A model generated the notes under the pieces. The model saw only the letters and a list, made by a program, of their open reading frames with translations. It made no database searches and was not told the DNA's origin. Shown one piece after another: positions 1-23,664 of a stretch of DNA of 23,664 bases (the first letter of the stretch is position 1; every line of letters starts with the position of its first letter). The stretch covers positions 1 through 23,664 of the IMG/VR virus record IMGVR_UViG_2663763326_000004, one strand, 5' to 3'. Source of the DNA: a virus (taxonomy: Duplodnaviria; Heunggongvirae; Uroviricota; Caudoviricetes). The translations under genes and the position numbers were made by a program.

Positions 1-42
1 TTAGATTTGACTGAAATCGTACAGTAAAAAGCGTACAATAAA

Positions 43-68
43 GGCTCCACGAAAGTGGGGCCTTTTTT
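43..68 (+). terminator. Rho-independent terminator-like hairpin
   Basis: GGCTCCAC-gaaa-GTGGGGCC stem-loop (one G-U wobble) followed directly by TTTTTT. It probably ends a plus-strand transcript entering from the left flank. Confidence 0.4.
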
Positions 69-281
69 AGCACGAGAGCCTTTTTTGTCAGCTATCTATA
101 CTTTAAGGTGACTGCCAAAACAGACTCGACGTAGCCTTCGAGCTGCGCACCAACACGGCCTCAGATGGGCCACATCTGGAGAAACACCGCAATGTCAGTT
201 ATTGGTGACATTTTTTGATATCTAATTACATGAAATAAAAGGATTTATTTCTGGTCACGTCCACACATTGACCACATCGAC

Positions 282-314
282 AAAAAAGCCCCTCGACTGA
301 GGGGCTTTCTGTTT
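282..314 (-). terminator. Intrinsic terminator downstream of ogr (bidirectional-looking)
   Basis: Perfect 7-bp GC-rich stem GCCCCTC-gact-GAGGGGC flanked by an A-run on one side and a T-rich run on the other. It lies 5 nt past the ogr stop on the minus strand. Confidence 0.55.
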
Positions 315-318
315 GTAA

Positions 319-537
319 TTACATCCACATAATTTGCTGCCCTGACGGCAGCGGGTGCGGCCTTACGGCGTGGACTTCTCCCGGCTTCACAATGTATCGC
401 TGTACCGACTCATAAGTGATGAACGTGGCGCTGCAATTCACGTTCTGACACTGGTGATAACGCTCTTTTGTCGTGTCAGTGATATAGCGACTTGTACGCG
501 CATGTGCGGCATGCTGGCATAAAGGACAATGAAACAT
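319..537 (-). CDS. ogr: Late-gene transcription activator Ogr (zinc-finger, 72 aa)
   Basis: The ORF 319..600 contains MFHCPLCQHAAHARTSRYITDTTKERYHQCQNVNCSATF with a Cys-x2-Cys...Cys-x4-Cys zinc finger, which matches P2 Ogr as I recall it. The true start is the internal ATG at 537; the 21-aa upstream extension is not part of Ogr. Confidence 0.9.
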   Translation of the reverse strand: MFHCPLCQHAAHARTSRYITDTTKERYHQCQNVNCSATFITYESVQRYIVKPGEVHAVRPHPLPSGQQIMWM

Positions 538-618
538 CGCGAGCACCTCTTCCGGTTTTGTTGATGGTGCCATTTTAGTTAATTTATCCTTATAAAACAA
601 ACAGATAAATAAAAAACA

Positions 619-1242
619 TCACTCATCATCTTCTGTTTCGTACTCCACATCAGAAAGCCTTACCTCAAGCTCCAAAGACGTCGTGAAGCCGCTATTATTG
701 AGAAAATGTGTAACCTTAGTGATGGTCCAGTCCTGCTCGTCTATGACGCGCTTAAAGCCTGACACTTTAACCGGTGTTTCCGTGTAAATATCTGCCCGTC
801 CGGTAGCCAGGCTGATGGAGAACTCTGCTACACCCCGTTGCAGTTTATCCCACTTCGCCTGAGCGGCACGCATGGCCTGTGCTTTCGTGGCATATACCGT
901 GGTCAGGGCAAAAACGTTGTCAGCCTCACCGGCCATGTATTCACCTTCGCGCGCTTCCGGTACTTTTGGCGCTTTCTTCTGCCTGACCGGTTTCGCTTTC
1001 GGGTGCTCCAGTGCGCGCAGGTGTTTCTCTTTCTTTTTGCGTTTCAGTTTTACCTTCTGCTTTTGCGGCTTCGGGTCTTTGGTGTGTAACCACTTTGCCG
1101 TTACGCCGGTGTAGGCTCCACGGTCAGCAATCGCAAAATGATGACGGTCGCCGTCGCTGCGGGTGATGGTGACCTGCTGGATTTTTTTACCGCTGGCCGT
1201 CACCCCCTGCCCCGCTTGCGTATTTTCATGAAAGGAGATCAC
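619..1242 (-). pseudogene. D: Tail protein D (late control gene D), C-terminal fragment, separated from its N-terminal half by the IS insertion
   Basis: The ORF runs from the IS junction to a stop at 619. Its first codon is a GTG formed partly by IS-terminal sequence, and its position between U and ogr matches P2 gene D. Confidence 0.8.
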
Positions 1243-1350
1243 TCAATAACTTCCATCGAGATCGGGTAATAACATTTGAACAGATCGCTGAATAACATCG
1301 ATGGAGATCACTTTTGACTCATTTTGTTATTCAGTGATCTCCATCAATGT
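1229..1350. repeat. IS21-family left terminal repeat region (multiple transposase-binding repeats)
   Basis: A terminal GGAGATCACTCAATAAC is followed by an internal inverted copy GTTATTCAGTGATCTCC and by ATCGATGGAGATCAC. Confidence 0.55.
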
Positions 1351-1409
1351 TATTGGAACTTCACAGGTGTGTTGATCTGTATCTTTTGCCATTCCGGTAA
1401 AGGATACCT

Positions 1410-2951
1410 ATGCCAACAGTTCCAATTTCTATGAGAAAACTTAAAGAAATTCTTAGGCTTAAATACGGTGTTGGACTCAGCCATCGACAAATTGGTCGTA
1501 GTCTTGCAATCTCCCCTTCCGTTGTATCCAGATATGCTAATCGGGCGGCTCAACTTGGCATAAAGCAGTGGCCCTTACCTACAGGATGGGATGATACAAA
1601 ACTAAAACATGCGTTCCTTCAGACCCAGGTTAAGATGAAGAAGCACTCTCTGCCTGACTGGGCTACAGTACACCGGGAACTGCGTAATAAATGCGTGACG
1701 CTGCAGCTACTCTGGGAAGAATACTGTGAGCGTAATCCAGGCGGTTTTTACAGCTATAACCATTACTGCCGGATGTACCGTGAATGGCTCAAAACCACTT
1801 CACCATCAATGCGTCAGGTACATAAAGCTGGCGAAAAACTTTTCGTTGATTACTGTGGACCTACCGTTGGCGTTACCGACCCTGAGACCGGAGAAATAAG
1901 AACTGCTCAGGTCATCGTAGCTGTTCTCGGGGCATCAAGTTACACATGGGCAGAGGCCACCTGGTCTCAGCAGCTTGAAGACTGGGTGATGAGTCATGTT
2001 CGCTGCTTCCAGTGGTTGGGTGGCGTTCCTGAACTTGTTGTTCCGGACAATCTGAAAAGCGCCACATCCAGGGCATGTAAGTATGATCCTGACGTTAACC
2101 CTACCTACCAGCAGATGCTTGAGCATTATAATGTCGCAGTTTTGCCTGCGCGGCCACGTAAACCGAAAGATAAAGCCAAAGCTGAAGTTGGCGTTCAGGT
2201 TGTTGAACGCTGGATCATGGCCCGAATCAGGCATGAGATCTTCTACAGCCTTGCATCGCTTAATCAGCGCATTCGGGAGTTGCTGGAAAGACTGAATAAC
2301 AAAATAATGCAGAAGTTGGGTTATTCACGTGCAGAACTCTTCATCCAGCTTGATAAACCCGCACTGAAGCCTCTTCCTGAAGCCAGTTACAGTTACACCC
2401 TGGTGAAGAAAGTCAGAGTTCATGCCGATTACCACGTGGAAATCGACAAACATTACTACTCGGTTCCATGTTCGCTGTTAGGCCAGCAACTGGAAGCATG
2501 GATCTCCGGAGAACTGGTAAGACTCTTCAATCAGGGGCAGGAGGTTGCTGTGCACCCGCGCAAGCGTACTTATGGCTACAGTACCCGCAACGAGCACATG
2601 CCTGAAGCTCATCGACAGCATGCCACCTGGACGCCAGAGCGTCTTCTGGAATGGGCGGGGCACATAGGCAGTGAAACTCATAGTTATGTGCTTCATATAC
2701 TGAACTCTCGTCCACATCCGGAACAAAGCTATCGCTTCTGCCTTGGACTCCTGAACCTTCATAAAAAATACAGTAAAGCCAGACTTAATGCAGCATGTGC
2801 AAGAGCTCTGAAAACAAAGGTATGGCGTCTGTCAGGTATTAAATCGATCCTGGAAAAAGGTCTGGATAAACAACCTGTTCAGGATCCAAAACCAGATCTG
2901 TTATCCACGATGGAACACGAAAACGTACGCGGCAGTGAGTATTACCACTGA
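1410..2951 (+). CDS. istA: IS21-family transposase IstA (513 aa)
   Basis: N-terminal helix-turn-helix region followed by an integrase-like catalytic core. It is immediately followed by istB, the typical IS21 arrangement. Confidence 0.9.
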   Translation: MPTVPISMRKLKEILRLKYGVGLSHRQIGRSLAISPSVVSRYANRAAQLGIKQWPLPTGWDDTKLKHAFLQTQVKMKKHSLPDWATVHRELRNKCVTLQLLWEEYCERNPGGFYSYNHYCRMYREWLKTTSPSMRQVHKAGEKLFVDYCGPTVGVTDPETGEIRTAQVIVAVLGASSYTWAEATWSQQLEDWVMSHVRCFQWLGGVPELVVPDNLKSATSRACKYDPDVNPTYQQMLEHYNVAVLPARPRKPKDKAKAEVGVQVVERWIMARIRHEIFYSLASLNQRIRELLERLNNKIMQKLGYSRAELFIQLDKPALKPLPEASYSYTLVKKVRVHADYHVEIDKHYYSVPCSLLGQQLEAWISGELVRLFNQGQEVAVHPRKRTYGYSTRNEHMPEAHRQHATWTPERLLEWAGHIGSETHSYVLHILNSRPHPEQSYRFCLGLLNLHKKYSKARLNAACARALKTKVWRLSGIKSILEKGLDKQPVQDPKPDLLSTMEHENVRGSEYYH

Positions 2952-2962
2952 TACGGGATCCA

Positions 2963-3712
2963 ATGATGAATCATCTTTACGAACAACTGACCGCACTTAA
3001 ACTCACCGGCTTCCGTGATGCGCTTAAAAAGCAACTTGCTCAACCGGGCACATACCAGGAGCTGGGCTTCGAAGAACGCCTGTCATTACTGACAGCAGAA
3101 GAACTAACCTGCCGTGAAAACAGGAAGGCAGAGCGTCTGATCAAACATGCACGGTTCAGACTTAATGCTGAGTTATCAAAGCTGGATTATCGTAACAATA
3201 GAGGGCTGGACAGGGCCCTCATCCGTTCACTCAGTCAGGGAAACTGGTTAACCCTGAAACAAAATATTTTACTGACCGGGGCCACCGGCAGCGGTAAAAC
3301 GTTCCTGGCATGTGCACTTGGTCATAATGCCTGCCGACAGGGATACAAGGTCTACTATTATCGCCTTAAAGCGCTGATGGAACAGTGCTATCAGGGGCAT
3401 GCTGATGGAAGATACAGCAAACTTTTGACCAGGCTGAATAATAGCGATCTGCTGCTTCTGGATGACTGGGGGCTGGAACCTCTCTCATCAGAACAGCGTA
3501 GCGACCTGCTGGAAATAGTGGATCTGATGTACCAACGAGGCTCAATCATCGTAGTGAGCCAGTTGCCGGTGGAAAACTGGTACAAAATGATCGGAGACTC
3601 CACACATGCGGATGCCATCCTAGATCGACTGGTTCATGGCAGTATCAAGATCGAACTTAAAGGAGAATCAATGCGGAAAATACAATCTCCGTTGACCGAA
3701 GGAGATCAGTGA
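2963..3712 (+). CDS. istB: IS21-family helper ATPase IstB (249 aa)
   Basis: Walker A motif GATGSGKT and Walker B motif LLLLDDWG, in a DnaC/IstB-like protein directly downstream of istA. Confidence 0.9.
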   Translation: MMNHLYEQLTALKLTGFRDALKKQLAQPGTYQELGFEERLSLLTAEELTCRENRKAERLIKHARFRLNAELSKLDYRNNRGLDRALIRSLSQGNWLTLKQNILLTGATGSGKTFLACALGHNACRQGYKVYYYRLKALMEQCYQGHADGRYSKLLTRLNNSDLLLLDDWGLEPLSSEQRSDLLEIVDLMYQRGSIIVVSQLPVENWYKMIGDSTHADAILDRLVHGSIKIELKGESMRKIQSPLTEGDQ

Positions 3713-3744
3713 AGGTAATTTAAAAACGGTTCTGTGAAAGTGAC

Positions 3745-3785
3745 ACGAACCGATCTCCATCGATGTTACTCACCGATCTCCTTCA
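3745..3785. repeat. IS21-family right terminal repeat region
   Basis: Two direct copies of CCGATCTCC (ACCGATCTCCATCGATGTTACTCACCGATCTCC) at the right IS end, inverted relative to the left-end repeats. Confidence 0.55.
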
Positions 3786-4368
3786 CGGTAATACGCACCG
3801 CTTTGAGAAACAACAATTTTCCCATTTTTACCGACACCTCACCGCCGTTGCGTTCTGCAAGACGGGTCAGGAATTTCGCATCAGACTCCTGCGACTGGTC
3901 GATGTGCGGGATTTTAATTCCGGCCAGTGACGGAGCGACACTGGCTTCCAGCCTGTTACGGGAGGCTATCGCCTCAACAATCGCACCGAGCGTGGTGTCA
4001 TGCCAGGAGCCTTCACGGCGGGAATTGAGCGTCCCGCGGAAATCTGCACTCCGGGCGCGGATGGTGACCACATCCGGCGCGCCCCGGTGTTCAACCTCAT
4101 CAACGGTGAATTTCCCTTTGCATACCAGGGCAAAACCTTTCCAGCCGATATACACCGTCAGGACAGCGCCACGAACCGGCAGCCCGACCTGCCCGTCGGC
4201 ATCGTTCAGTTCAATATCAAGCTGGTCAGCCTCAAAGCCCCGGTTATCCGTCAGGGTCATGCTCATCAGACGGTCACTGATATTGCCGGTAATATCCCTG
4301 CTGTCGAGCATCAGCATGTAATCCGGCGTCAGCGTACTGCCTGCATCAAATGTCAGTGCATCCAGCAT
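3766..4368 (-). pseudogene. D: Tail protein D, N-terminal fragment truncated by the IS21-family insertion
   Basis: Starts MLDALTFDAGSTLTPDYMLMLDSRDITGN, with its ATG overlapping the U stop (TAATG). The last few codons (KEIGE-stop) are read from IS-terminal sequence. Confidence 0.8.
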
Positions 4369-4847
4369 TATCCCGCCCCCGTCATACCTGTGAATTTAGT
4401 CGCCATACTGCCAGCCTTACCGATGAGCGATTCCGCCTGTTTACCGATATCGCCATAAAGCGCGGCCAGTGATTCGTCAACGCGGGTGAGCGACAGCGTA
4501 AAATCAATTTTTCGGGGTGTGCCGTCTGCAAAGAAAATACTCCCTGTTTCACTCACCCTGCTGATGACATACATGCCGTAAATCATGCCGGTACCATCCA
4601 GCAACGGCCACGCCCGACCTTCCTCTGCCATCAGCCTGAGCGTGGTCATCGTCAGCTTGCCGCCGGTCAGTTCGGGATAAAGCACACCGGCCAGCGTCAT
4701 GTTTTCCTCGCCAACGCCGAGAAACTGGTAGGCATCCCGTTTACCGATACGGGAATTTGACGGCCAGCGATAATCTGATTCACGCTGCATGGTCTGGTGT
4801 GGCAGCGTCTGGCGCATAAAAACAAACATACCTAACGCGAGCATCAT
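4368..4847 (-). CDS. U: Tail protein U (159 aa)
   Basis: Length and position match P2 gpU between T and D. Confidence 0.85.
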   Translation of the reverse strand: MMLALGMFVFMRQTLPHQTMQRESDYRWPSNSRIGKRDAYQFLGVGEENMTLAGVLYPELTGGKLTMTTLRLMAEEGRAWPLLDGTGMIYGMYVISRVSETGSIFFADGTPRKIDFTLSLTRVDESLAALYGDIGKQAESLIGKAGSMATKFTGMTGAG

Positions 4848-4861
4848 TTTTCGTCACCTCC

Positions 4862-7309
4862 TTAACCGTCATGCATCATGCTGGCACGGGAGCGCGCACG
4901 TTTATCCCGCTCGTATTTTTCGAGCGCATCCTGTAACTGGCGGTCAAGCTGTGTCCCCGGCGCAGTACCACCCGTCAGGCTGATGTGATATTCGTTTTTA
5001 CTCTGGTCCACATAAGAGCGGCCAGCCGGTGCCGTGACCGGCTGATAAGTCTGATAGCCTGCATAAGAGCTGGTCGCCGGAATATAACCACCGGTGCCAT
5101 ACGTGGCGGCATGAGTTCTGGCGGCGGTCTGGTCAAGTGTGTCTGACTCTTTGTTGATAACACCGAGTTTTTCCAGTACCCAGTCAATACCGCTGCGCAG
5201 TTTGTTGAACGCATTAAGCGGCAGCATCAGCGCGTCAGCCAGTGCCTGCCCGAACATGACCCCCGTGTCACGGCAACTGTTCAGGGTGTCCTGAGTGGCT
5301 TTGACCGGGGCAATCAGGTTTTTAAACCACTGCCACGCGGCCTGTAACTTTTCACCCAGCCAGTCAAACACCGGCTTAAGTGGCGTGAACAGTTCCCCCA
5401 CCGGCGCAAATGCCACTTTCAGCCCTTCAACCACACCGCCAAAGAATGCGCTGACAGGCTCCCAGTATTTACGGATAAGCAACGCCCCGGCGACAATTGC
5501 GGCCACCACGGCCACAACCGGCCAGCTAATAGCCCCGATGGCGGTCATAACAGCACTGCCAACCGTCGTGAAGACTGCCCCCATTGCGCCTGCTGCCGCG
5601 ATGATGGCATTGATGCCGGTGATAACCGGCCAGGCTGCGAGGCCAATGGCACCGATGACACCAATCAGCGCCAGCGCGCCACCGGCAATGATGCCGATGG
5701 TTGACACCAGTGATTTGTTTTTCTGGATCCAGCCGTCGAGTTTTAACACATACTTTGTGGCCGTCTGCGTGAGCTTACGCAGCGCGCCTTCCTGCTGGTC
5801 AAACAGGTCAGTCCCCACCGCCTCATAAGCGGACTGAAACTCTTTAAAGTCACCGCCTAGGTTGTCCTGCATGATATTTACCAGCTCGGCGGTCTTCCCG
5901 TCTGAGGCTTTAAACGCAGCGGTCAGTTTGTCCAGCTTTCCGGTTGAGGCGGCAGTCATCAGCACGGCGGCGGCTGAGCTGGCCTCCTCCCCGAAAATAG
6001 TTTTCATGTATTCAGCCTGCTGGGCAGTACCGAGCCGGTTTTTCTCAAAACTGGCCTGCATTTCTTTCAGAATGGTAAATATTGGCCGGGTGTTTCCCTT
6101 GCTGTCTGAGGTTTTCACTCCAAGCTCTTTGAGTGCATCCCATGCTTTTCCCGTCGGTGCCTGCAGGCGGCTTAACACGGCACGGCTTCCCGTCCCCGCC
6201 ATTGAGCCTGTGATTTTTGCATCATGCAGCGCCCCGACCATTGCGGCGGTTTCTTCAATGCTGACACCGGCATTTTTTGCCACAGGTGCGGCATAGGTCA
6301 GCGCATCGCTCATGCCGTCAAAATCGGCGGCGGTTTTGTTCATCGTCATGGAGAGAACATCCCCGATATGAGCGACCTTATCGTTTGAAAGCTGAAAGGC
6401 GGATTTCATCCCCATCAGCAGGGCGGCGTTTTCTTCCATCGTGCGGCGGTTCGCCAGCGCCATATTCAGCGTGACCGGCGTTGCCGCCTGAATGGCATCA
6501 ACATCCCCACCCGCTTTCGCGATGATTATCTGTGCACCGGCCGCATCATCCGCCGAGGCGGCGGTATTGTCGCCGAGCTGGCGCGCCTGTTTGCGTAGTG
6601 CGGTCATTTCGGCGGAGTCTTTTGCCACTCCGAGCACGGCCTGCAATTCTGAGTTTTTCTGCGCAAACTCATAACCGGGCATCAGCAGCTTAACTCCGGC
6701 CATCGTTCCCGCCGCCGCAATCCCCACACCGGCAGCGCCCACCGAGGCCATATTTCCGGCCAGTTCCTTTCCGGCCTGATAACGCTGTTTTACTGCGTTA
6801 AGTTTTGCCTGTTGCGCACTGACACGCGCCAGCGCATCACGCTGACGGTTAAGCTGTGCGGTGGTTTCACTGATACGGTTTTTCAGTCCCTGCTCATCAT
6901 GTGCAAGATTGCGGGTATTAATTCCCACAGCGGCCAGTTCCCGCTGCTGGCGTTTAAGGGAATCTGTCAGGCGGTTATATTTCGCCTGTAAGTCCTCCGC
7001 CGCACGCTTTGCGGATTCCAGCACTTTCGCCTGAGCACGGGTCGGACGTTCAGTGTTTTTAAACTGTGTGGCAAGGGCTTCGGCCTCCTGCCGTGCCTTT
7101 TCAAGTGCATGACCAGTCACGGCGAGCTGTGCGCTGGTCTTGCGAAATCCCTCAATACGGGATGCGTGACCGTTCAGCTCGCGCAGTGATTTTTGTGTTT
7201 CCCGGATATCCCCCGACAGCGACTTGCTCGCTGTGCGGATGGATTTAAACGGGCGGGATGCCTGGTCAACAGCCCTGAGCAATACCTGTAATTTTACATT
7301 GTTACTCAT
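4862..7309 (-). CDS. T: Tail tape measure protein T (815 aa)
   Basis: Long coiled-coil N-terminal half and a Gly/Ala-rich hydrophobic segment. The 815-aa length matches P2 gpT and the start ATG overlaps the E' stop. Confidence 0.9.
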   Translation of the reverse strand: MSNNVKLQVLLRAVDQASRPFKSIRTASKSLSGDIRETQKSLRELNGHASRIEGFRKTSAQLAVTGHALEKARQEAEALATQFKNTERPTRAQAKVLESAKRAAEDLQAKYNRLTDSLKRQQRELAAVGINTRNLAHDEQGLKNRISETTAQLNRQRDALARVSAQQAKLNAVKQRYQAGKELAGNMASVGAAGVGIAAAGTMAGVKLLMPGYEFAQKNSELQAVLGVAKDSAEMTALRKQARQLGDNTAASADDAAGAQIIIAKAGGDVDAIQAATPVTLNMALANRRTMEENAALLMGMKSAFQLSNDKVAHIGDVLSMTMNKTAADFDGMSDALTYAAPVAKNAGVSIEETAAMVGALHDAKITGSMAGTGSRAVLSRLQAPTGKAWDALKELGVKTSDSKGNTRPIFTILKEMQASFEKNRLGTAQQAEYMKTIFGEEASSAAAVLMTAASTGKLDKLTAAFKASDGKTAELVNIMQDNLGGDFKEFQSAYEAVGTDLFDQQEGALRKLTQTATKYVLKLDGWIQKNKSLVSTIGIIAGGALALIGVIGAIGLAAWPVITGINAIIAAAGAMGAVFTTVGSAVMTAIGAISWPVVAVVAAIVAGALLIRKYWEPVSAFFGGVVEGLKVAFAPVGELFTPLKPVFDWLGEKLQAAWQWFKNLIAPVKATQDTLNSCRDTGVMFGQALADALMLPLNAFNKLRSGIDWVLEKLGVINKESDTLDQTAARTHAATYGTGGYIPATSSYAGYQTYQPVTAPAGRSYVDQSKNEYHISLTGGTAPGTQLDRQLQDALEKYERDKRARSRASMMHDG

Positions 7310-7729: not shown

Positions 7730-7785
7730 GGTTTTCTCACTTCTGAATCAGGGTTAACCGGTCAGCCAGGCTGACCGGATGAAAA

Positions 7786-8304: not shown

Positions 8305-8316
8305 CGGTCAGGCTCC

Positions 8317-9507: not shown

Positions 9508-9534
9508 CCGTTTAACTCCGTGGTTAATGGGTGC

Positions 9535-9600
9535 AACTATTTTCTGTTGTGCAGAGCATGAGACGCTATTTGACCTGGCTGGTCAGTGGATGAAACAACA
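9535..9600 (-). promoter_or_regulatory. Candidate late promoter for the FI-FII-E-T-U-D operon (Ogr-dependent, P2 P_F-like)
   Basis: P2 late promoters carry an Ogr dyad (TGT-N12-ACA) centred near -55. Upstream of FI there is a partial match, TGT-ttcatccactga-cCA, and an A/T-rich -10-like AGAAAATAG about 25 nt before the ribosome-binding site. Confidence 0.3.
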
Positions 9601-12184: not shown

Positions 12185-12199
12185 ATCAACCTCGCAGAC

Positions 12200-16411: not shown

Positions 16412-16421
16412 TGTTTCTCAC

Positions 16422-16952
16422 TTATCCGGGATAAACAGTAATAACATCACCATCACAGACCACACCGCCTGTATACAGATAGCCGGGAATGTCCTGGATA
16501 ATGTTCAGGCCGATAAGGTGGCGACTTGCGGGTTTGGCATCGGCAATCAGCCGTTCCATTTCCAGATACATTTCCTCTGTGATACCGCTTTCCAGCACAC
16601 CGATATCAAGACGAAAGGTTCCGGCCGGGTCGTTTGTCTCCCACCATTCCTTTACGTTAATGAGATAGCCGAGCGGCTCCACCACACGCCGGATTGCGCC
16701 GACAGTGCCTTTATGACAGTGGATGAAATAGGCATCGCGGATAACGGCGCGTTTTGTCGCTTCCGGCCACTTTTCATCCCACCTGTCGACCGAAAACGCC
16801 CACGCCAGCCACGGCAGCAGATTTGCCGGGCAGGTGTCCGGGTTCCACAGCTCACGAATACTGACCGGCGTTTTTTCAATTTCCGCACAGGCTTTTGCGG
16901 CGGCGACCTCAAGCGGTGATGAGCCGGTCGGCAGCAGGCGCGAATCACTCAT
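16422..16952 (-). CDS. I: Baseplate assembly protein I (176 aa)
   Basis: 176 aa between J and H, matching P2 gpI. Confidence 0.85.
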   Translation of the reverse strand: MSDSRLLPTGSSPLEVAAAKACAEIEKTPVSIRELWNPDTCPANLLPWLAWAFSVDRWDEKWPEATKRAVIRDAYFIHCHKGTVGAIRRVVEPLGYLINVKEWWETNDPAGTFRLDIGVLESGITEEMYLEMERLIADAKPASRHLIGLNIIQDIPGYLYTGGVVCDGDVITVYPG

Positions 16953-17853
16953 CCGAGCCTCCGGTCACGACGCGGTATTCGGTACAGAAAGACGCCTGCG
17001 TATTGTTGAGCACGATGTCGGCCAGCGGTGCAGCCAGTTCGACACGCTGCACGCCTTCCACATGCAAAGCGGCATAAATGGCAGACAGACGGATGTCGCG
17101 CCCCAGCCGGTGCTGTGCCGTGATATACGCTTCCAGTTTTTTCACGGCGGCAGCGCGGATGGGTTCGCTTTCGGGACCAGGGTAAAGGTAAAGCGTGGCG
17201 TTTATCTGGTATTCAACAATGGCGGCAGACTGCACGGTCACGCGGTCGGCCACCGGCCTGACGTCCTCGCCATTCAGGGCGTTACGCACCACCGCCAGCA
17301 GGTCTTCGGATGCGACGCCGTTATTTTCACGTGACAGCACAGAGATGGTGACGCAGGCCGGAGAAGGACTGGTGACAGAGATATCCGCGACACGCCCGTC
17401 GGCACTGCGACCATGATACTGATAGGCTCCCACCGACCCGGCGACGCTTAAACCTTCAAACGCCTGCTGAATACGCAGACGATAATCGGTGTCAGATTCC
17501 ATCACTGCCGGTGTCGGCGGGATGGTCGAATCATCTGCCGGGGTGATAATCAGGCGCGTGGTGTTGTAATTGGCACCAATCACATCAAGGTCGTTACCGG
17601 CGGCACAGGCCAGCATCACCGCCCGTGCGGCCTCATTCACACGCTGACGCCAGATAAGCTCACGATAAGCATTTTCCTCCAGCAGTTTGACGAGAGGCTC
17701 GGATTCCAGCGTCAGGGTACGGGCGACCGCCTCCTGCTGGTCTTCCGGGTAAAGGGAAATCAGTGTCGCCTTGCGTTCAGCGAGAATGGTTTCAAAGTCC
17801 AGCTCCTCGACCACATCCGGTGCGGGTAGCTGGTTCAGGTCGATAATCGGCAT
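16945..17853 (-). CDS. J: Baseplate assembly protein J (302 aa)
   Basis: 302 aa, overlapping the start of I by 8 nt, matching P2 gpJ. Confidence 0.85.
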   Translation of the reverse strand: MPIIDLNQLPAPDVVEELDFETILAERKATLISLYPEDQQEAVARTLTLESEPLVKLLEENAYRELIWRQRVNEAARAVMLACAAGNDLDVIGANYNTTRLIITPADDSTIPPTPAVMESDTDYRLRIQQAFEGLSVAGSVGAYQYHGRSADGRVADISVTSPSPACVTISVLSRENNGVASEDLLAVVRNALNGEDVRPVADRVTVQSAAIVEYQINATLYLYPGPESEPIRAAAVKKLEAYITAQHRLGRDIRLSAIYAALHVEGVQRVELAAPLADIVLNNTQASFCTEYRVVTGGSDE

Positions 17854-17857
17854 GGTT

Positions 17858-18205
17858 TCAACTCACAGGGATGGTTAACGAAAGTGGCTGGCCGGTGTCG
17901 TTGTGCTGGCCGGTTAGCGTAACTGTCATTCGCCCGTCAAAGCTGCGCGCCGTGGTGACGGATGACAGGGTGACGCGGGGTTCCCATTTCAGCACCGCCA
18001 TGTAACAGGCGACCTTAATCTGCAACTCAAGCGCCGGGGTCTGCGGCTGGTCAATCATTGATGCCAGCAATGAGCCGTAATCACGACGCATCACCCGTGA
18101 GCCGACCGGCGTGCGCAGGATATCGCCGATACTCTGGCTGATATGCTCAAGGTCAGTGACAGTCAGGCCATCACTGCGATTCATTCCGAGATAACGTGCT
18201 GTCAT
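17858..18205 (-). CDS. W: Baseplate assembly protein W (115 aa)
   Basis: The ORF 17858..18298 contains MTARYLGMNRSDGLTVTDLEHISQSIGDILRTPVG starting at the internal ATG at 18205. The upstream 31 codons overlap V and are not part of W. Confidence 0.85.
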   Translation of the reverse strand: MTARYLGMNRSDGLTVTDLEHISQSIGDILRTPVGSRVMRRDYGSLLASMIDQPQTPALELQIKVACYMAVLKWEPRVTLSSVTTARSFDGRMTVTLTGQHNDTGQPLSLTIPVS

Positions 18206-18836
18206 AGAGGACTCCCGGTTGTGCCGCCGCTGTCGCCGGGTGTTTATGGGTATGCAGTACCTTACCGTTTGATGAGAGTTCACCGCCGGTGTGTTCAATG
18301 TTGCCGCGCATCGTCCCGCCCTTCTGCACTTCCAGCGTGCCGGTAGTCAGCTTGTTTGTGCAGACCACCTCCGGCGTGTCCAGGGTGACACGGGTTGACG
18401 CTTTCACCGTGACCACCGGTACCGTGGCAGTAACAGAATCAGAAGCCGTCACGCTGGCCGTTTTAATTCCGCTTACCGTGAGTGCACTGGTTTCGGGTTC
18501 ATACTCAATCACCGCCCCGTCAGAGAAACGGATATGCAGGGCATCAGCCGACGCAGACGGCGCAGGGTTATCGCCGGAATAAATCCCCGGCAGAACGAAC
18601 GCCGTGTCGAGTTCACCGCCCACGGCCAGAATCAGCACCTGTTCCCCCACGGAAGGTGCCCACCATGTGCGCGAACGACCGGCGCGCTGGGTCAGCCACT
18701 GCAGCCAGTCGGTGCACATGCCGCCGGTCTGCACACGGCAGCGACCGGCGTTAAGGTCGGTTTCGACGACAAGGCCGGTGCGGATCATGTTGCGCAGTGC
18801 GCGCGCGAGTTCCTGAATATTTGCGAGAGTGTTCAT
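18171..18836 (-). CDS. V: Baseplate spike/assembly protein V with an altered, extended C-terminus
   Basis: Starts MNTLANIQELARALRNMIRTGLVVETDLNAGRCRVQTGG. After ...KVLHTHKHP the reading frame differs from the frame that would end ...GDSGGTTGSPL at a stop overlapping the W start. A 1-nt deletion in a G-run near plus 18236..18240 explains this. Confidence 0.8.
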   Translation of the reverse strand: MNTLANIQELARALRNMIRTGLVVETDLNAGRCRVQTGGMCTDWLQWLTQRAGRSRTWWAPSVGEQVLILAVGGELDTAFVLPGIYSGDNPAPSASADALHIRFSDGAVIEYEPETSALTVSGIKTASVTASDSVTATVPVVTVKASTRVTLDTPEVVCTNKLTTGTLEVQKGGTMRGNIEHTGGELSSNGKVLHTHKHPATAAAQPGVLYDSTLSRNESQ

Positions 18837-18902
18837 AACGGGAAGGATGCCGCCGGGTCATACCGGCGGCAATGTGACGATGAGGTGTCGGGAATGGCAC
18901 AA

Positions 18903-19354
18903 CTAACGGTCGAGGTGAGCCAGGATAATCTCTTCAATCATCTGCACATCCTCACCGGTAAAGCCGAGCAGAGGACGCGCCGGATAATCAATTTTCTTAC
19001 CGTCTTTCCGGGTTTCTTCCGACAGACCGAACTGATGCACACTGGCGATTTTCGGCGACTTCCCGCCGTAAAATTCCATTGATGCCTGCTCCGGGCTGGC
19101 GCGGATATGCAAAAAACGACTGGTGATAAGTTTCGCAAACATTTTTCGCTTAACGCGACGGTCTTTTTTCTGGCGCTCTGCTGCTGGCGTGGCGCATAGG
19201 GTGTGCCGTCCGGGGCTTTCTGTGTCATCACCCGACGCTGCTGACTCTGCCGCAGGCGTTTCGCCAGTTCGGCACTCAGTCGCCGACGCCCTGACGGTGA
19301 CAGCGACTCAATAAGTCCGGTCAGCCGGTCTTCAAAACGCTTAAACTCATTCAT
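18903..19354 (-). pseudogene. S: Tail completion protein S, frameshifted
   Basis: The N-terminal part (MNEFKRFEDRLTGLIESLSPSGRRRL...RQQQSARKKT) is in ORF 18938..19354 and the C-terminal part (MFAKLITSRFLHIRASPEQ...AHLDR) is in the overlapping ORF 18903..19142 in a different frame. The span is 452 nt, one short of the 453 nt needed for a 150-aa protein, which implies a single 1-nt deletion near plus 19155..19160. Confidence 0.75.
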
Positions 19355-19814
19355 CCCACTTGCTCACCAGTTCGCCATTGATATACAGCTCCATCGGGCG
19401 GGTAACCGGCTCCGGCGGCGGAGGTTCCGGGATATTCTTCACATGCAGCGCGCCGTCCACCTCACTGACCAGCGTGCGCTCGGTCAGCATCAGGCTGATG
19501 CTGATATCAAAGCTGCTGTCATTGTTGATGTCTGCATAAAACGTGAAGCCCTTTTTCTGGCCTGCGTCGGTGGTCATGATGTCGGGCTGATTTTCCCGCA
19601 GCCACGCCAGCACCGGCACGATGAGCAGGTCAAAATCACCGGTAAAGTCGGTCACAATGACATTGAGCGTGTAACGCTTTTCGAATGACAACGACGCCGC
19701 CAGTGTGGAGGCAATACTCCCGTTATCCACGAATATCCGCAGCATATCGGGGTTAGTTTTCAGCACCGTGACGGCATCAGTCAGCGCCCTGCGCAGGCTG
19801 TCGGGTTTGAGCAT
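19347..19814 (-). CDS. R: Tail completion protein R (155 aa)
   Basis: 155 aa starting MLKPDSLRRALTDAVTVLKTNPDMLRIFVDNGSIAS, between lysC and S. Confidence 0.85.
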   Translation of the reverse strand: MLKPDSLRRALTDAVTVLKTNPDMLRIFVDNGSIASTLAASLSFEKRYTLNVIVTDFTGDFDLLIVPVLAWLRENQPDIMTTDAGQKKGFTFYADINNDSSFDISISLMLTERTLVSEVDGALHVKNIPEPPPPEPVTRPMELYINGELVSKWDE

Positions 19815-20067
19815 CGTTTTCGTCCTGACAGTGTTTAATCATTTTTACCTGGCTGGCACAGCGTGCCAGCGCGTTCTCAAGTTGCCGGATATCGGCACTT
19901 AAATCGCCGTTCGTCTCCGGGTCACTGCCCGGTATCGGGCAAAGACTCACTTTCGGGCAGGCGTTGTGGACAATCACTGGCGTCGGTGCAGGCGGGGCGC
20001 TGGTGCAACCGGCGCACAGCATCAGGCAGGTCAGCACCGTACCAGCGGCGAAAATCTTCGTTTTCAT
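19777..20067 (-). CDS. lysC: Rz1-like outer-membrane spanin lipoprotein LysC (96 aa), embedded in the lysB/R overlap
   Basis: An internal start within ORF 19777..20184 gives MKTKIFAAGTVLTCLMLCAGC, a signal peptide with a lipobox (LCAGC), followed by a Pro-rich segment. It is in a different frame from lysB and runs into R. Confidence 0.7.
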   Translation of the reverse strand: MKTKIFAAGTVLTCLMLCAGCTSAPPAPTPVIVHNACPKVSLCPIPGSDPETNGDLSADIRQLENALARCASQVKMIKHCQDENDAQTRQPAQGAD

Positions 20068-20347
20068 TAAGTAACCTCGTGATGGTTTTCTCGCGCTGTG
20101 CTTCACGCTTCGCGGCGTTCTCCAGTTCCTGACGCAGTGCCACCTGCGCCAGCTCGTTTTTGTCTGCCCTGGTGAGGGCAACATGAAGCTGATTTTTCAG
20201 CATGGTGATGGTCGCCTGCTGCCCACTGGCGACGTTGTTCGCCCTGTCCAGCGAGGCGCGCAGGCTGGCGTTTTCATGCTTCACCAGAAACAGCGCCGCC
20301 ACCGCCAGTGATAACAACACAACCAGCACAATCATCAGCTTTGACAT
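19922..20347 (-). CDS. lysB: Rz-like inner-membrane spanin LysB (141 aa)
   Basis: N-terminal transmembrane helix (MSKLMIVLVVLLSLAVAALFLV) followed by a coiled-coil periplasmic domain. Confidence 0.85.
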   Translation of the reverse strand: MSKLMIVLVVLLSLAVAALFLVKHENASLRASLDRANNVASGQQATITMLKNQLHVALTRADKNELAQVALRQELENAAKREAQREKTITRLLNENEDFRRWYGADLPDAVRRLHQRPACTDASDCPQRLPESESLPDTGQ

Positions 20348-20759
20348 AATTCCCGCCCCTCAAGACGCTGACGACAGGCTTTACGTATCAGCCGGAAAAA
20401 CAGCGATGCCACGAGATAAATCAGCGCGGTAAAAATCCACCCGGCGGCAACCAGCGAGATAAACGTCGCCACCATCACCACCAGAGCTGCTGCCCGTCTG
20501 TGCCACGGCACCGGCTGCAAAAACAGCGACGTGACAATCTTCACGGCCAGCGATTCCGGCGGCAGCCCCGCCCGTAGCGTTCCAGTACATACTCTGTGGC
20601 ATACACGCCGACACCGCCGGCAACCACACAGATAACCGTCGCCAGAATCGCCCAGGCGGCGACAAAATTGACGGCCACGCTCTGCGGGTAAATCAGGGAC
20701 AGTGCCAGCATCAGCGCCAGCGACACGTTCAGCATCAGTGAAAGGGATAATTTCTTCAT
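20335..20759 (-). pseudogene. lysA: Lysis regulator/membrane protein LysA, frameshifted
   Basis: The N-terminal hydrophobic part (MKKLSLSLMLNVSLALMLALSLIYPQS...) is in ORF 20541..20759 and the C-terminal hydrophobic part (...PVPWHRRAAALVVMVATFISLVAAGWIF...) is in the frame of ORF 20335..20931. The span is 425 nt, one short of 426 nt for 141 aa, with the deletion in a G-run near plus 20566..20570. Confidence 0.7.
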
Positions 20760-20773
20760 GGTGTTTACTCCGT

Positions 20774-21271
20774 TTAAGCCGGTACGCCGCCAGCGGTACG
20801 CCAGACGGTGACCAGTTTTTCCAGTGAATGCTCACGCTGACCGTAACCGGCTCCCGGCAGGGACGCCCAGATATTGCGACAGCGTGAAATGGCGCGCTCA
20901 ATGCGTCCCGCCCGGATGTCATCCAGTGCACCGCGTTCGCGGATCAACTGAATGGCGAGTCTGTCCTGTGACAACGGACTGAAATCCGGCAGGGCAAGCT
21001 GTTTGCGGTAATGCGGCCAGAACAGGTAAAGCTGCTGATAGCGACCGGAGGCCGTGGATTTTTCACCACGACGGTTAAACACCTTCGCCGGTCGGCCATG
21101 CGCGAACGGGTGGTCACTGTAGTCGGTGAAAATTTCCGGCTTTCCGTCCACTCCGGTGACTATCACGTCATAGCCCCGGTTTTTCGTCAGCGGATGGTTC
21201 GCCGTCCCTTCGGACACAGCCAGCATGTCGAGAAAGGCCGCGATATTCTGATGCGTGTTAATTACCGGCAT
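20774..21271 (-). CDS. K: Endolysin K (lysozyme-like, 165 aa)
   Basis: Internal start MPVINTHQNIAAFLDMLAVSEGTANHPLTKNRGYDVIVTG within ORF 20774..21316. Matches P2 gpK. Confidence 0.85.
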   Translation of the reverse strand: MPVINTHQNIAAFLDMLAVSEGTANHPLTKNRGYDVIVTGVDGKPEIFTDYSDHPFAHGRPAKVFNRRGEKSTASGRYQQLYLFWPHYRKQLALPDFSPLSQDRLAIQLIRERGALDDIRAGRIERAISRCRNIWASLPGAGYGQREHSLEKLVTVWRTAGGVPA

Positions 21272-21551
21272 TACGGTTTCCCCTGCCCTTAAAACGGCGC
21301 TGAATGGCAATCTCAATCACCTGATAACCGGCGATACCCAGCATGGAGCCGATGCCGCACACCGCAGGCAGTGACAGGTCAGGAAACTGCACCAGAACAA
21401 CACCGGCAACCATCGAGACAAAACCACCGAGCAACATGCGCCCGATAAACAGACGCGGGGTGATGGGTTCACCACCGGCAAGCACCTTGCCGACAACAAT
21501 CAGCACCCCAATCATGAAAAGCGACAGGACGCTTTTTTCTTCTGCTGTCAT
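21258..21551 (-). CDS. Y: Holin Y, with a probable C-terminal frameshift
   Basis: Hydrophobic membrane protein starting MTAEEKSVLSLFMIGVLIVVGKVLAGG. It reads 97 aa here, against about 93 aa expected. Adding one G to the run near plus 21279..21282 would end it ...GRGKP at a TAA overlapping the K start (TAATG). Confidence 0.75.
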   Translation of the reverse strand: MTAEEKSVLSLFMIGVLIVVGKVLAGGEPITPRLFIGRMLLGGFVSMVAGVVLVQFPDLSLPAVCGIGSMLGIAGYQVIEIAIQRRFKGRGNRNAGN

Positions 21552-21554
21552 GCG

Positions 21555-21758
21555 TTACTCCCACAGATTGACAGTTTCAGCCACGGGCGCGGTCTGAACG
21601 TCGGGCAGTTCGACGGCGGTGCCGTGCGGCAGCACCGCACCCAGTTCAGCCAGTCCCGGATTTGCGGCGAGCACAGTCTCGACCACGCCCTCAGTGCGCC
21701 CGTAATACCGGACACAAATGGCGTCGAGCGTGTCGCCCTGTAGCGCAAAGGTCTTCAT
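21555..21758 (-). CDS. X: Tail protein X (67 aa)
   Basis: Internal start MKTFALQGDTLDAICVRYYGRTEGVVETVLAANPGL within ORF 21555..21827. Confidence 0.85.
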   Translation of the reverse strand: MKTFALQGDTLDAICVRYYGRTEGVVETVLAANPGLAELGAVLPHGTAVELPDVQTAPVAETVNLWE

Positions 21759-22266
21759 CAGATTTGACTCACGATGCAGCGTGGCTTGTCCTGGATGCGC
21801 GCCACTGCCCAGCGCATATCCCGCCACAGTTCATCAATGGTGCTGTCAATGCTGTCGGCCTTCTTGTCGCCTTTCGCACTGGCATCCACGCCGCGATAAC
21901 GCTCATAAAGCGACGCGGTCGCCATCGCACACACGGCGCGCTCGTAGTAAAAAACTTTGATACTTTCACCGTCGATGTCGTCCGCCGGAACGTCCGCCAG
22001 ACGCGTAAAACCGGCGGCAATTTTCTGTTCGCGGTACTCGTACAGCTCCGCATTTGTTTCCGCCATGCCTGACTTGATGGCCTCACGCAGACGGGCGGGG
22101 CGACGGTCTGCTCAAGGCGCATACGTTCCCGGACGCGCTTCGGGTCGATATCGGGAAAAAAGAACGTGTTTTTAATCACCGGCTCGTCGCCTGCCGGTTG
22201 CGGGATGACCACCGTACCCTCACCGGACACGGGAGCCTCCTTTCGCGGAATAATCAGCGTCATCAT
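21758..22266 (-). pseudogene. L: Head completion protein L, frameshifted
   Basis: The N-terminal part (MMTLIIPRKEAPVSGEGTVVIPQPAGDEPVIKNTFFFPDIDPKRVRERMRLEQTVAP) is in one frame and the rest (MAETNAELYEYREQKIAAGFTRLADVP...) is in ORF 21758..22066. The span is 509 nt, one short of 510 nt for 169 aa, with the deletion near plus 22093..22100. Confidence 0.75.
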
Positions 22267-22363
22267 GACTACCTCTGAAAAGTCGGGCGGTGGACGCCGT
22301 GCAGTGTCAGGTGATTCCACCTCACTGACCGGCGTGCCGCCCTGGCGCGGGCGCATTCGGTTG

Positions 22364-23096
22364 TTAACTGGCTTTCTTTTCGGGCGTCCACGTTTTGCCG
22401 GTGTCCACGCTCCGGGTCTTACGCGGGGTACGGGTGCCGCTTTTGGCTGCGGCTCCGGCTTCGTTTCAGCTCCCGCTCAGTCGTTCAATCTCTTTTTGAC
22501 GCCTGCCTGACAGTCGAGCTGTGTCGCACGTTGCAGATGCGCCAGCGCCCTGCGGCATCACCAGCGTCACGCAGAAACAGACCGGTGATTTTGTGCAGCT
22601 TTGCGCGCACTTCATCAGGCATGTCAGCTGTGGCGGTCAGTTCAAGGGTGTCCGTCAGCAGGCGGGGATCCACAGACTCACCGCAGCGTGGGCGCGCATG
22701 GCCGCGAGCGCGACCTCCTCGGTGAACATGTACGGCGGGGTACGGCGGTGTTTACCCGGCATGGTCAGACCGTACTTCAGGGCATAACGGGCAATCTCCA
22801 GCGCACCGCAATATCGCCGGTATCCAGACGCCACAGCATGACCGTCATCAGAATGTCATCCTGTGCGCCTTTGCCCTGCTCCAGCACGCCGTTCACCCAC
22901 GGCAACCAGAACGGCAGCAGTTCGCGCTTTTTCGCGGCCTTCAGCTCTTTTGAATAAATCGCTTTCAGTGTGCGCTGGTCTGCGGCCAGCTTGACCAGCA
23001 TCTGCTCATAGACAGTTGCATGTCGCAGCGGCGGCTTCCCGCTGCGCGGTCATCGCTGCCGAGACCGCATCATGTGGCGCTGTGCGGGACTCGTCA
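22364..23096 (-). pseudogene. M: Terminase small (endonuclease) subunit M, multiply frameshifted
   Basis: Recognisable segments (MTSPAQRHMM; MLVKLAADQRTLKAIYSKELKAAKKRELLPFWLPWVNGVL; PYMFTEEVALAAMRAHAA; LLTDTLELTATADMPDEVRAKLHKITGLFLRD) lie in different frames. At least four 1-nt deletions in G-runs are placed near plus 22548, 22682, 22805 and 23065. The end coordinate is approximate. Confidence 0.65.
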
Positions 23097-23125
23097 TCGG
23101 TTACGCTCCCGGCTCTGCGGTCGCC

Positions 23126-23664
23126 TTAGCCGTGTGTGGAGAAGTCACCGACCTTAATTTTTTCCACCAGACAACCGGCGGCGTAGTCTTCCACCACGTA
23201 ATCAATGTTCATTGACTCGTAGTTCTCCACGCGATCAAGTTTCGGGTTTTCCTCAATCACGCGGCGATGGCTGTCATCCATGTAGTAGATGGACAGGTTT
23301 TCCAGCTTCGTGATGAGCATCGCATCCCCGGGAAGTACGGAACACGTACCGCCGGCAGATTACCGATGCGTTTCTGGCTGATGATGACGTCAGCGGCCAG
23401 CATTTCGCTGTTGTCCTGCTCCTTGTTGACGATGGGGAAATACTTGTCTGCCAGTAGCTGACGTCCCACAATCACCACAAGGTCAGGGTCTTCCTGATAC
23501 CACGGCTCAATCAGGTTGTTGGTCGCATCCATCACCAGTGCATCAAGGCTGGCATAATCACCGCCCTTGCCCACGCGGATAACCTCAGAGGTGGTGTGGC
23601 CTTCCTCGTCAGTGACCTTGCTCATCACGCGCGCCGGGGCTTCATTGCGGTATTTCTGCAGCCG
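23126..23664 (-). pseudogene. N: Major capsid protein N, 3' portion (gene continues beyond the window), frameshifted
   Basis: ORF 23257..23628 (...GRQLLADKYFPIVNKEQDNSEMLAADVIISQKRIGNLPAVRVPYFPG) and ORF 23126..23320 (MLITKLENLSIYYMDDSHRRVIEENPKLDRVENYESMNIDYVVEDYAAGCLVEKIKVGDFS) are consecutive parts of one protein in different frames. The shift is at a G-run near plus 23325..23331. Confidence 0.7.

Follow-up and report, generated by a model that had tools for sequence, protein, structure and literature searches.

Is the prophage in this DNA a decaying remnant that its host keeps for a defence module, or an otherwise complete phage with a single recent lesion? The original prediction had taken the first view, and the answer depends on which of the lesions are real, on what the cargo genes encode and on how both behave among related prophages.

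The prophage and the ISEc12 insertion in gene D

The window, meaning here the whole stretch of 23,664 nucleotides analysed, covers the ogr-to-N part, about two thirds in all, of a P2-like (Peduovirus) prophage at the pflB/pflA site of E. coli ST131. Peduovirus genomes show 95.5-96.8% identity to it across 68-69% of its length, that is, all but the insertion sequence and the cargo island, and the gene order is that of the P2 late genes (ogr-D-U-T-E-FII-FI ... G-H-I-J-W-V-S-R-lysis-X-L-M-N). Compared with strain 751 all bases are the same except for one-base indels, with zero true substitution over 23.6 kb. According to the RefSeq annotation, strain 751 has the whole element, int through ogr, with D alone as a pseudogene; the integrase, immunity, replication and packaging genes (int, C, cox, B, A, Q, P, O and N) lie outside the window and none of them is flagged as a pseudogene.

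All phage genes of the window are on the minus strand. The late-gene activator ogr (319-537), assigned from the strain 751 annotation and intact in all relatives, is found at the right end of the prophage beside pflB. The tail genes U, T, E/E', FII and FI (4368-9507) are intact and the same as in strain 751, without any indel, and the tail-fibre and baseplate genes G, H, I, J and W (13215-18205) are likewise intact by comparison with that strain. V, S, R, lysC/B, lysA, K, Y, X, L, M and part of N follow at 18202-23664, the region holding all the window-private one-base indels. The E/E' pair corresponds to a normal programmed frameshift. An Rfam gathering scan and a tRNA scan of the window each returned zero matches to RNA genes.

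ISEc12 (IS21 family, 2,581 bp) occupies 1217-3797 on the plus strand, with the ends TGCGTATT...AATACGCA, and is 100% identical to copies elsewhere. It carries intact istA (1410-2951), whose product matches Pfam rve, and intact istB (2966-3712), whose product matches Pfam IstB_IS21, and is flanked by a 5-bp target duplication, CCGCT, at 1212-1216 and 3798-3802. A DDE transposase, a helper ATPase, terminal inverted repeats and a 5-bp duplication are all features of the IS21 family, and nothing in this copy is unusual. The insertion interrupts the tail/baseplate-hub gene D near codon 189 of 387, leaving a C-terminal piece (619-1216), annotated as a pseudogene fragment and collinear with the intact D of S65EC and ST131 isolate 46, and an N-terminal piece (3798-4368), where the open frame 3766-4368 runs into the insertion sequence. 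In S65EC and ST131 isolate 46 the site is empty and D unbroken. Among complete genomes the same D::ISEc12 insertion was observed in strain 751 only, and the 200-aa D/IS chimeric product is also present in at least 10 other draft contigs, all of which end at the insertion sequence.

An insertion sequence in the phage structural genes, as originally proposed, is therefore well established. Furthermore, since gene D is split, the prophage very probably cannot build tails, and in this sense it was rightly called disabled. From the general genetics of P2, gpD would be essential; a literature search on the essentiality of gpD gave nothing useful. If D is indeed required, infectious particles are most likely absent from the D::ISEc12 lineage. 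Prophages of the P2 type do not respond to SOS induction. The insertion is probably a young, neutral lesion and not the mark of long-term domestication.

One-base indels in the last 5.4 kb

The several frameshifts that were claimed can be read in the window's letters, yet they probably do not exist in the organism. There are 21 single-base indels between 18237 and 23327, at 18237, 19158, 20565, 21279, 22096, 22298, 22348, 22376, 22405, 22435, 22462, 22477, 22492, 22547, 22682, 22807, 23029 (two), 23064, 23133 and 23327. They are found in V, S, lysA, Y, L, M (12 indels) and N, and two more are intergenic. Their density rises from 0 per kb (1-18000) to 1 per kb (18-22 kb) and, over the final 1.66 kb, to 10.2 per kb; in 18 of the 19 deletions the base is lost from a homopolymer run (P = 2.5e-6). 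In an alignment of these 5,681 bp, eight relatives display 358 variable columns and zero indels (Fisher P = 1e-33), and none of the 21 is present in these relatives, strain 751 with the same IS insertion among them. The frameshifted 221-aa V product has no match on record. Given that the indels are private to the window, located in homopolymers, unaccompanied by substitutions and denser toward its end, they are probably homopolymer-length assembly or sequencing errors and not decay, the case being a statistical one. A mismatch-repair-deficient mutator was also considered as their origin and was ruled out, because substitutions are absent and the positional gradient is steep.

Were the frameshifts real, the element would be a decaying remnant under relaxed selection which the host keeps for its defence cassette. 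The indels are present in the sequence as given and the cargo is free of them, both as such decay would have it. However, 21 indels stand against zero true substitution, 18 kb of equally dispensable tail genes are entirely unchanged, and the ten-fold gradient toward the window end, the homopolymer bias and the absence from strain 751 and seven other relatives all argue against decay, as does a dN/dS of about 0.1 in the phage genes. Two further points in favour of decay come from elsewhere, namely a true remnant among the relatives (L019) that has spared both cargo loci, and the literature on defective P2 elements with intact defences. On balance we regard this explanation as very improbable. 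The raw sequence had suggested a prophage in decay whose cargo is protected, an impression that rested largely on homopolymer errors at one end, which is a caution for similar readings.

The PARIS cassette and its hotspot

The two cargo genes were described as intact and having their own promoter. The first part is confirmed, as both frames (414 aa and 285 aa) are open and 100% identical to their strain 751 counterparts. The exact AriA sequence is on record in 1,085 blocks. On the minus strand, ariA (10940-12184; Pfam, PADLOC and phmmer) would encode the ABC-type ATPase sensor of PARIS and ariB (10082-10939; Pfam, PADLOC and AlphaFold2/Foldseek) its DUF4435/TOPRIM nuclease effector; the genes abut, ariA ending at 10940 and the downstream ariB starting at 10939. 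AriA matches Pfam AAA_15 with 73.0 bits and AAA_21 with 62.4 bits as well as the PADLOC AriA model, aligns with the solved AriA 8ux9_B over residues 281-391 (phmmer E = 4.7e-11), and its translation displays a Walker A (GPNGYGKT), a signature (LSSGE) and a Walker B (ILIDEPE). AriB matches Pfam DUF4435 with 89 bits and PADLOC AriB with 75 bits. By the rule of Rousset 2022 (AAA_15 ≥32 bits or AAA_21 ≥27 bits, plus an adjacent DUF4435 ≥27 bits, downstream on the same strand), the pair is thus detected as PARIS.

For AriB, searches of the PDB by sequence (phmmer) or with a 20-sequence profile found nothing meaningful, and structure prediction with Foldseek was needed. The AlphaFold2 model (pLDDT 90.6) matches only AriB chains, 8ux9_A (E = 8e-8) and 8v46_D (E = 2e-7), with a probability of 1.00 and a TM-score of 0.57 over the full length. 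Alignment A1, of 20 sequences, shows E35-G36-x-x-D39 without variation, and in alignment A2 the conservation of these residues is ≥90%; D84-x-D86 is invariant in both. The fold, the catalytic Glu and the DxD motif of a TOPRIM nuclease are all found in AriB.

Another ATPase-nuclease module, of toxin-antitoxin or OLD/Gabija-like type and not an anti-phage PARIS, could be imagined, as models for PtuA, GajA and AbiL-type ATPases pick up AriA too, and AriB has no sequence-level match to a solved AriB. Against this, the top PADLOC matches are AriA and AriB, the DUF4435 score is 89 bits, significant structural similarity is limited to the AriB chains from two PARIS complexes and extends along the entire protein, and the gene order and abutting stop and start codons are as in ariAB. 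We give this alternative hardly any credence and assign the pair to the PARIS family, with an anti-phage activity presumed by analogy.

In the E. coli B185 PARIS, activity is triggered by anti-restriction proteins, leading to AriB release and tRNA cleavage (PMC11464382). By analogy with characterised PARIS, AriA hexamers would keep AriB inactive, a phage trigger protein such as Ocr would bind and free AriB, and the freed AriB would cut host tRNA and abort the infection. The present cassette resembles the B185 system, carried on a P4-like satellite (PMC9122126; PMC11464382; 8UX9, 8V46), in being a two-gene operon of an AAA_15/21 ATPase followed by a DUF4435 TOPRIM protein, in its AriB fold over the full length with the TOPRIM Glu and DxD kept, and in having the cargo hotspot of a mobile viral element as carrier. 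It differs in that AriA has 414 aa instead of 464 aa and aligns confidently in the C-terminal ATPase part only, that AriB is merely 11-12% identical to the characterised AriB, and that it is located in the P2 fun hotspot and not in the P4 psu-int hotspot. Given this low identity and the invisibility of AriB to PDB sequence and profile searches, its trigger and tRNA target may differ. The locus could hence serve as a natural example for testing a PARIS variant far in sequence from the characterised one.

The cargo island has a GC content of 31-35% and lies in the "fun" hotspot, between the tail genes FI and G. It is bounded by a left inverted repeat (9691-9715) pairing with a right one (13138-13162) over 25 nt with 84% complementarity, and P2-EC hotspot records have left and right inverted repeats annotated at matching edges. 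About 150 bp at either edge are conserved in ~970 genomes bearing other cargo. The fun-containing locus, the second defence locus of P2, has been described (PMC9519451); the present island shares with it its place, with the tail-fibre assembly gene G on one side and the sheath gene FI on the other, the flanking inverted repeats, the low GC, the conserved edges and the interchangeable cargo, and differs in carrying PARIS instead of fun. PARIS would be the phage's own cargo, in its second accessory hotspot.

Concerning the promoter, the best sigma-70-like candidate on the minus strand is at 12270-12241 (TTGAAA-18-TATATT with a TG extension); the ATG of ariA lies 57-86 nt downstream of it and has a GAGG ribosome-binding site 8 nt ahead. 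The site is plausible by its position, but the island holds 13 promoter-like sites against 18 expected in shuffled sequence, which is not above chance, so that it is no more than a candidate for a promoter of the cargo's own. A terminator-like hairpin on the minus strand (9611-9631) follows the cargo and precedes the region of the FI late promoter.

Selection, relatives and domestication

Among E. coli relatives the cargo shows 0-1 differences in 2.1 kb as compared with a backbone dS of 0.04-0.10, and a near-identical tract surrounds the cassette at ~8750-14250 of the window. The cassette would have entered this backbone recently, via homologous recombination within FI and G/H on either side of it. 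Since the cargo is almost invariant, dN/dS could not be contrasted between cargo and phage genes within these relatives, and relatives from other islands, at 93-95% identity, took their place. The cassette family displays a dN/dS of 0.08-0.28 and the phage genes 0.05-0.11; there is no relaxed selection on the phage genes. Furthermore, the identical cassette is carried by P2-like prophages that are entirely intact, and these occupy three sites in the chromosome (pflB/pflA, yegQ and one more). These two results speak against the idea that the host kept the prophage for its defence module. The term remnant does not fit either: of the multiple lesions or deletions that mark a cryptic element D::ISEc12 is the sole verified one, in an element that strain 751 shows to be complete, and selection on the phage genes is not relaxed relative to the cargo.

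Taken as a whole, the following reading is therefore highly probable: the locus is an ordinary, essentially complete P2-like ST131 prophage with a known PARIS system in a known hotspot and one recent IS hit, the cargo pair belongs to the PARIS family, and the DNA comes from strain 751 or from a strain nearly clonal with it. Apart from the errors, the biology is that of textbooks, with P2-like phages carrying defence cassettes in two hotspots, these cassettes being exchanged fast between backbones, and insertion sequences sometimes disrupting virion genes.

Defective P2 elements with intact defence genes have been reported (PMC13586616, NAR 2026), so the pattern itself is already known, and that study explicitly leaves open whether such elements are domesticated for their defences. 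L019, a remnant with three deletions that spare both cargo loci, fits the published elements fully, unlike the window, where the prophage is complete but for one young IS lesion. Cargo kept in a degraded phage is thus seen in one clear case, versus at least seven intact carriers. Given that L019 keeps both loci and that ISEc12 has hit P2-like prophages at least seven times independently, with distinct duplications in D (twice), T (twice), FI, O and lysA, defence-retaining remnants do exist in the population.

The recurrence of these hits raises the alternative that they are selected, knock-outs of virion genes in PARIS-bearing P2 prophages being the first step of domestication and L019 its end state. 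In addition to the seven independent insertions and the cargo-sparing deletions of L019, such a hit is found in 6 of the 13 complete genomes with this cassette, and ISEc12 interrupts a tail gene in 3 of ~8 independent cassette-bearing lineages among complete genomes; together with the remnant, the latter count makes some selection for disarmed prophages conceivable. However, the query held the insertion sequence, so that IS-bearing prophages ranked first, the contig survey favours unusual neighbourhoods, and prophage DNA is a tolerant target for an insertion sequence active in ST131. An enrichment of ISEc12 in the FI-D operon was considered and is not claimed because of this ascertainment bias, and by our estimate it is not significant given the region searched (P ~0.06). 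Moreover, a tail-gene insertion presumably gives the host no protection from lysis, and as a tail or scaffold knock-out would not spare the cell, its benefit is doubtful. Selection of the hits is accordingly unlikely, and we hold to a neutral lesion. A broader proposal, which joins a divergent PARIS subtype with triggers or tRNAs other than those of B185 to a selected series running from intact through IS-hit prophages to a deleted remnant keeping two defence hotspots (L019), is quite unlikely as a whole. Whatever drove it, the relatives form a small natural series on P2 domestication, with intact prophages, seven that are IS-hit and one triple-deletion remnant.

Completeness of the prophage and the ISEc12 insertion in D

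By megablast against phage genomes, Peduovirus (P2-like) phages are 95.5-96.8% identical to the window over 68-69% of its length and only two blocks have no Peduovirus match. Among complete E. coli genomes the top match is ST131 strain 751 (NZ_CP103562.1), with 99.9% identity over the full window length. According to the RefSeq annotation, this locus is a complete P2-type prophage flanked by pflB/pflA, with the gene order int, C, cox, B, A, a HEPN-domain cargo gene, Q, P, O, N, M, L, X, holin, lysozyme, lysA/B/C, R, S, V, W, J, I, H, G, the two cargo genes, FI, FII, E/E', T, U, D and ogr, and its sole pseudogene is D, split by ISEc12. Of this prophage the window takes in ogr through part of N, and tRNA and Rfam scans of it found no tRNA and no Rfam family. 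The E / E' pair (7302-7421 and 7454-7729) is the normal programmed-frameshift tail-chaperone arrangement and not a mutation. Two observations were made outside the window on L001, the same prophage with its surroundings. Its hotspot 1, between Q and A, encodes a 440-aa protein annotated as HEPN-domain (41415-42737), for which Pfam and PADLOC scans gave no match, and SIR2 or other genes occupy this place in relatives. Next to aroA (1-3921) lies a second phage-tail remnant, where partial tail-fibre genes accompany one for tail-fibre assembly and one of the recombinase family; the region looks like an invertible tail-fibre segment, which S65EC has in another arrangement.

The predicted IS insertion is real: comparison with S65EC, which holds the same prophage without the IS, delimits a clean ISEc12 of 2,581 bp at 1217-3797, with ends TGCGTATT...AATACGCA and a 5-bp target duplication CCGCT at 1212-1216 and 3798-3802. 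D is broken at about codon 189 of 387. In P2, D is an essential tail gene; since it is split here, we infer that this prophage does not produce infectious particles, while polar effects are not expected because no gene of the operon follows D. The product belongs to the VgrG/gp27-like hub family (RefSeq annotation; PF05954). Neither istA nor istB is damaged, and copies of the element in other genomes match it at 100% identity; the transposition is therefore recent. Among complete genomes the D::ISEc12 site is common only to the window and strain 751, and a chimeric 200-aa D'-IS product is recorded in at least 10 other draft contigs, all broken at the IS. The description of the prophage as disabled is hence probably right through D alone, this being the single verified lesion in an otherwise complete element.

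One-base indels near the end of the window

The several frameshifts on which the original prediction also relied are present in the letters as described. In a global alignment window 1-18236 is identical to strain 751, whereas 18237-23327 has lost a single base at 19 places and gained one at 2; the one other difference is a CA/AC swap, and none is a true substitution. Among the genes, those hit are V (at codon 200 of 211), S (codon 66 of 150), lysA (codon 65 of 141), holin Y (codon 91 of 93), L (codon 57 of 169), M (12 indels) and N (2 indels), and the L-M spacer is hit as well. When the window was aligned with eight relatives (96.6-99.6% identical), all 21 indel columns were private to it. 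Over this stretch each relative measures exactly 5,681 bp, and together they show 358 variable columns and 0 indels, so that 21 indels to about 1 substitution in the window compare with 0 to 358 in the relatives (Fisher P = 1e-33). Furthermore, 18 of the 19 deletions take a base out of a homopolymer run, against an expected fraction of 0.43 (P = 2.5e-6), 16 of the 19 lie in G/C runs (P = 1.6e-7), and the density climbs from 0 per kb in the first 18 kb through 1 at 18-22 kb to 10.2 over the final 1.66 kb. Near the end of a sequence, a stretch of low quality or low coverage produces such a pattern. Being private, homopolymer-biased, graded and substitution-free, the frameshifts are very probably artefacts. 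Relaxed selection was rejected because T, H, J and other tail genes of the first 18 kb, equally dispensable in a D-null prophage, are unchanged; a mutator background was rejected since substitutions would also arise and a gradient would not. U and I of S65EC have indels of their own, and H of this strain, although annotated as pieces of a pseudogene, had an intact ORF when checked; some "pseudogenes" among these prophages are assembly or annotation artefacts.

A distant PARIS variant in the fun hotspot

The cargo was predicted to be intact and is so. Its two genes abut on the minus strand, ariA at 10940-12184 and ariB at 10082-10939. The 414-aa protein matches AAA_15 (73 bits), AAA_21 (62 bits), the PADLOC AriA models and the solved AriA 8ux9_B (E = 4.7e-11). 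The 285-aa protein matches DUF4435 (89 bits) and PADLOC AriB (75 bits), and neither sequence nor profile search gave a PDB match for it. Its AlphaFold2 model (pLDDT 90.6) matches only the AriB chains of two PARIS complexes, 8ux9_A (E = 8e-8) and 8v46_D (E = 2e-7), with a TM of 0.57 and 11-12% identity, the next match being at E = 0.23. The TOPRIM motifs are kept in homologues as distant as 25% identity: D84-x-D86 does not vary in either homologue alignment, and E35-G-x-x-D39 is invariant in one, of 20 sequences, and at least 90% conserved in the other. The pair follows the published PARIS detection rule. The cargo is therefore classed as PARIS, and neither this kind of system nor its place, the fun hotspot of a P2-like prophage in ST131, is new.

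In B185 PARIS, AriB is sequestered by AriA hexamers and freed by a phage trigger protein in an ATP-dependent manner, after which the AriB dimer cuts tRNA-Lys and infection is aborted (PMC11464382). Although its AriB is distant in sequence from that of B185, the window's variant would be expected by homology to work alike: AriA hexamers would hold AriB sequestered, a phage trigger protein would free it with ATP, and the AriB dimer would cleave tRNA-Lys and so abort infection.

The cargo lies in a block of 31-35% GC bounded by 25-nt inverted repeats (9691-9715 and 13138-13162). At each island edge, ~970 E. coli genomes and numerous P2-like phages with other cargo share about 150 bp of conserved sequence, where hotspot records place a left and a right inverted repeat. 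The island is the second P2 defence locus, which contains fun in P2 itself (PMC9519451) and is separate from old/tin, the P2 locus studied by Rousset et al. Expression signals are plausible, with a candidate TG-extended promoter TTGAAA-N18-TATATT (12270-12241, minus strand), a putative ribosome-binding GAGG 8 nt 5' of the ATG and a terminator-like hairpin (9631-9611, minus strand). As for the cargo's own promoter, a candidate site thus exists, but promoter-like sites in the island are no more numerous than the shuffled expectation. In the 850-bp non-coding spacer 5' of ariA, fragments at 12469-12807 and 12929-13030 resemble, at 67-76% similarity, the regions around the D/ogr and X/L junctions in other P2-family phages and are probably relics of earlier recombination events.

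Selection, cassette transfer and the question of domestication

The original prediction held that a host had kept a prophage remnant for its defence module, and for this locus several results speak against it besides the completeness of the element. Against eight relatives, 27 phage genes show dN/dS of 0.05-0.11 and all fully aligned orthologues are intact; they have been evolving as working genes. The cargo displays only 0-1 differences in 2.1 kb for a backbone dS of 0.04-0.10, while ~40 synonymous differences would be expected under co-divergence. The cassette is hence simply young, and in the proposed sense neither older nor better conserved; the suggested dN/dS comparison with the phage genes is informative only through distant copies (95% and 93% nucleotide identity), where ariB is at 0.08-0.13 and ariA at 0.25-0.28, which is ordinary purifying selection with a faster-evolving sensor. 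These copies sit in non-P2 islands (L021 3970-7247, corresponding to window 9694-12970; L024 4662-7020, to 9915-12272) and are 91-93% identical overall including non-coding flanks and 91-95% inside the two genes; one has as neighbours a two-partner secretion locus and an nSTAND NTPase, and next to the other lie an integrase and a MazE/PIN pair.

Compared with three relatives (L003, L008, L009), a near-identical tract at ~8750-14250 covers the island, in backbones otherwise 3% divergent, and reaches ~1 kb past the inverted repeats, into FI at one end and G/H at the other. The cassette has therefore moved through homologous recombination within the genes that flank it and not only at the repeats, which fits the "swap" dynamics of P2 cargo described in PMC13586616. 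Elsewhere, isolate 46 (ST131) matches the window base for base from ogr to G and again from N on, but is ~3% different over H-M (13750-23100), where the AREA_502 yegQ prophage is near-identical to the window from I to S; this suggests recombination between co-resident P2-like prophages.

The same cassette proteins are moreover found in intact prophages at several sites. Isolate 46 has them at the same site, with no IS and all genes annotated intact, and strain 1217KP at the same site as well; in isolate 30224_1#355 the prophage is at yegQ with another integrase, and in L012 it adjoins a cation-efflux gene and pfk. The IS is absent from the prophage in 7 of the 13 complete genomes with the cassette.

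ISEc12 entered P2-like prophages at least 7 independent times, with a distinct 5-bp duplication each time, in a sample enriched in IS-bearing matches since the IS was part of the queries: in D (CCGCT, window and strain 751; GCGGT, opposite orientation, isolate 30859_5#32), T (CTCAG, strains 463 and 446; ACCCT, SEVG01000002), FI (ACCTC, Ecol_542), O (CCGTA, GIMC1409) and lysA (CTCTG, AREA_502). Copies in the comparison loci lie at L003 14150-16730, L004 16734-19314, L005 6508-9088, L006 20552-23132, L014 16903-19483 and L017 14911-17491. The recurrent hits may reflect prophage tolerance, target preference or selection. A genuine P2 remnant at yegQ (L019; GCA_042176185.2, ABUWAQ020000001.1) has three deletions, which took 2.0 kb and thereby most of A, 11.8 kb from within P to within G and 7.0 kb from within FII to within D, with 2-6 bp of microhomology at the junctions (3585-3590, 8397-8398, 14090-14094), while its SIR2 cargo in hotspot 1 and PARIS cargo in hotspot 2 are both intact (AriA an identical protein, AriB full length at 285 aa). 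The IS hits and this remnant are compatible with domestication and do not demonstrate it, because the queries contained the IS, prophage DNA readily tolerates insertions of an active IS, and loss of a tail or scaffold gene would leave host lysis unprevented. Defective P2 elements with intact defences are reported in PMC13586616, which leaves the domestication question unsettled. The only mildly new points are how far in sequence this AriB lies from characterised AriB, and that intact, IS-hit and deleted carriers form a small natural series. Finally, Yersinia phage vB_YenM_31.17, a Peduoviridae isolate, encodes a related ATPase and a 36%-identical AriB-like partner in its int/cI interval (L010 2836-4985), a third location of PARIS-like cargo among P2-family genomes.
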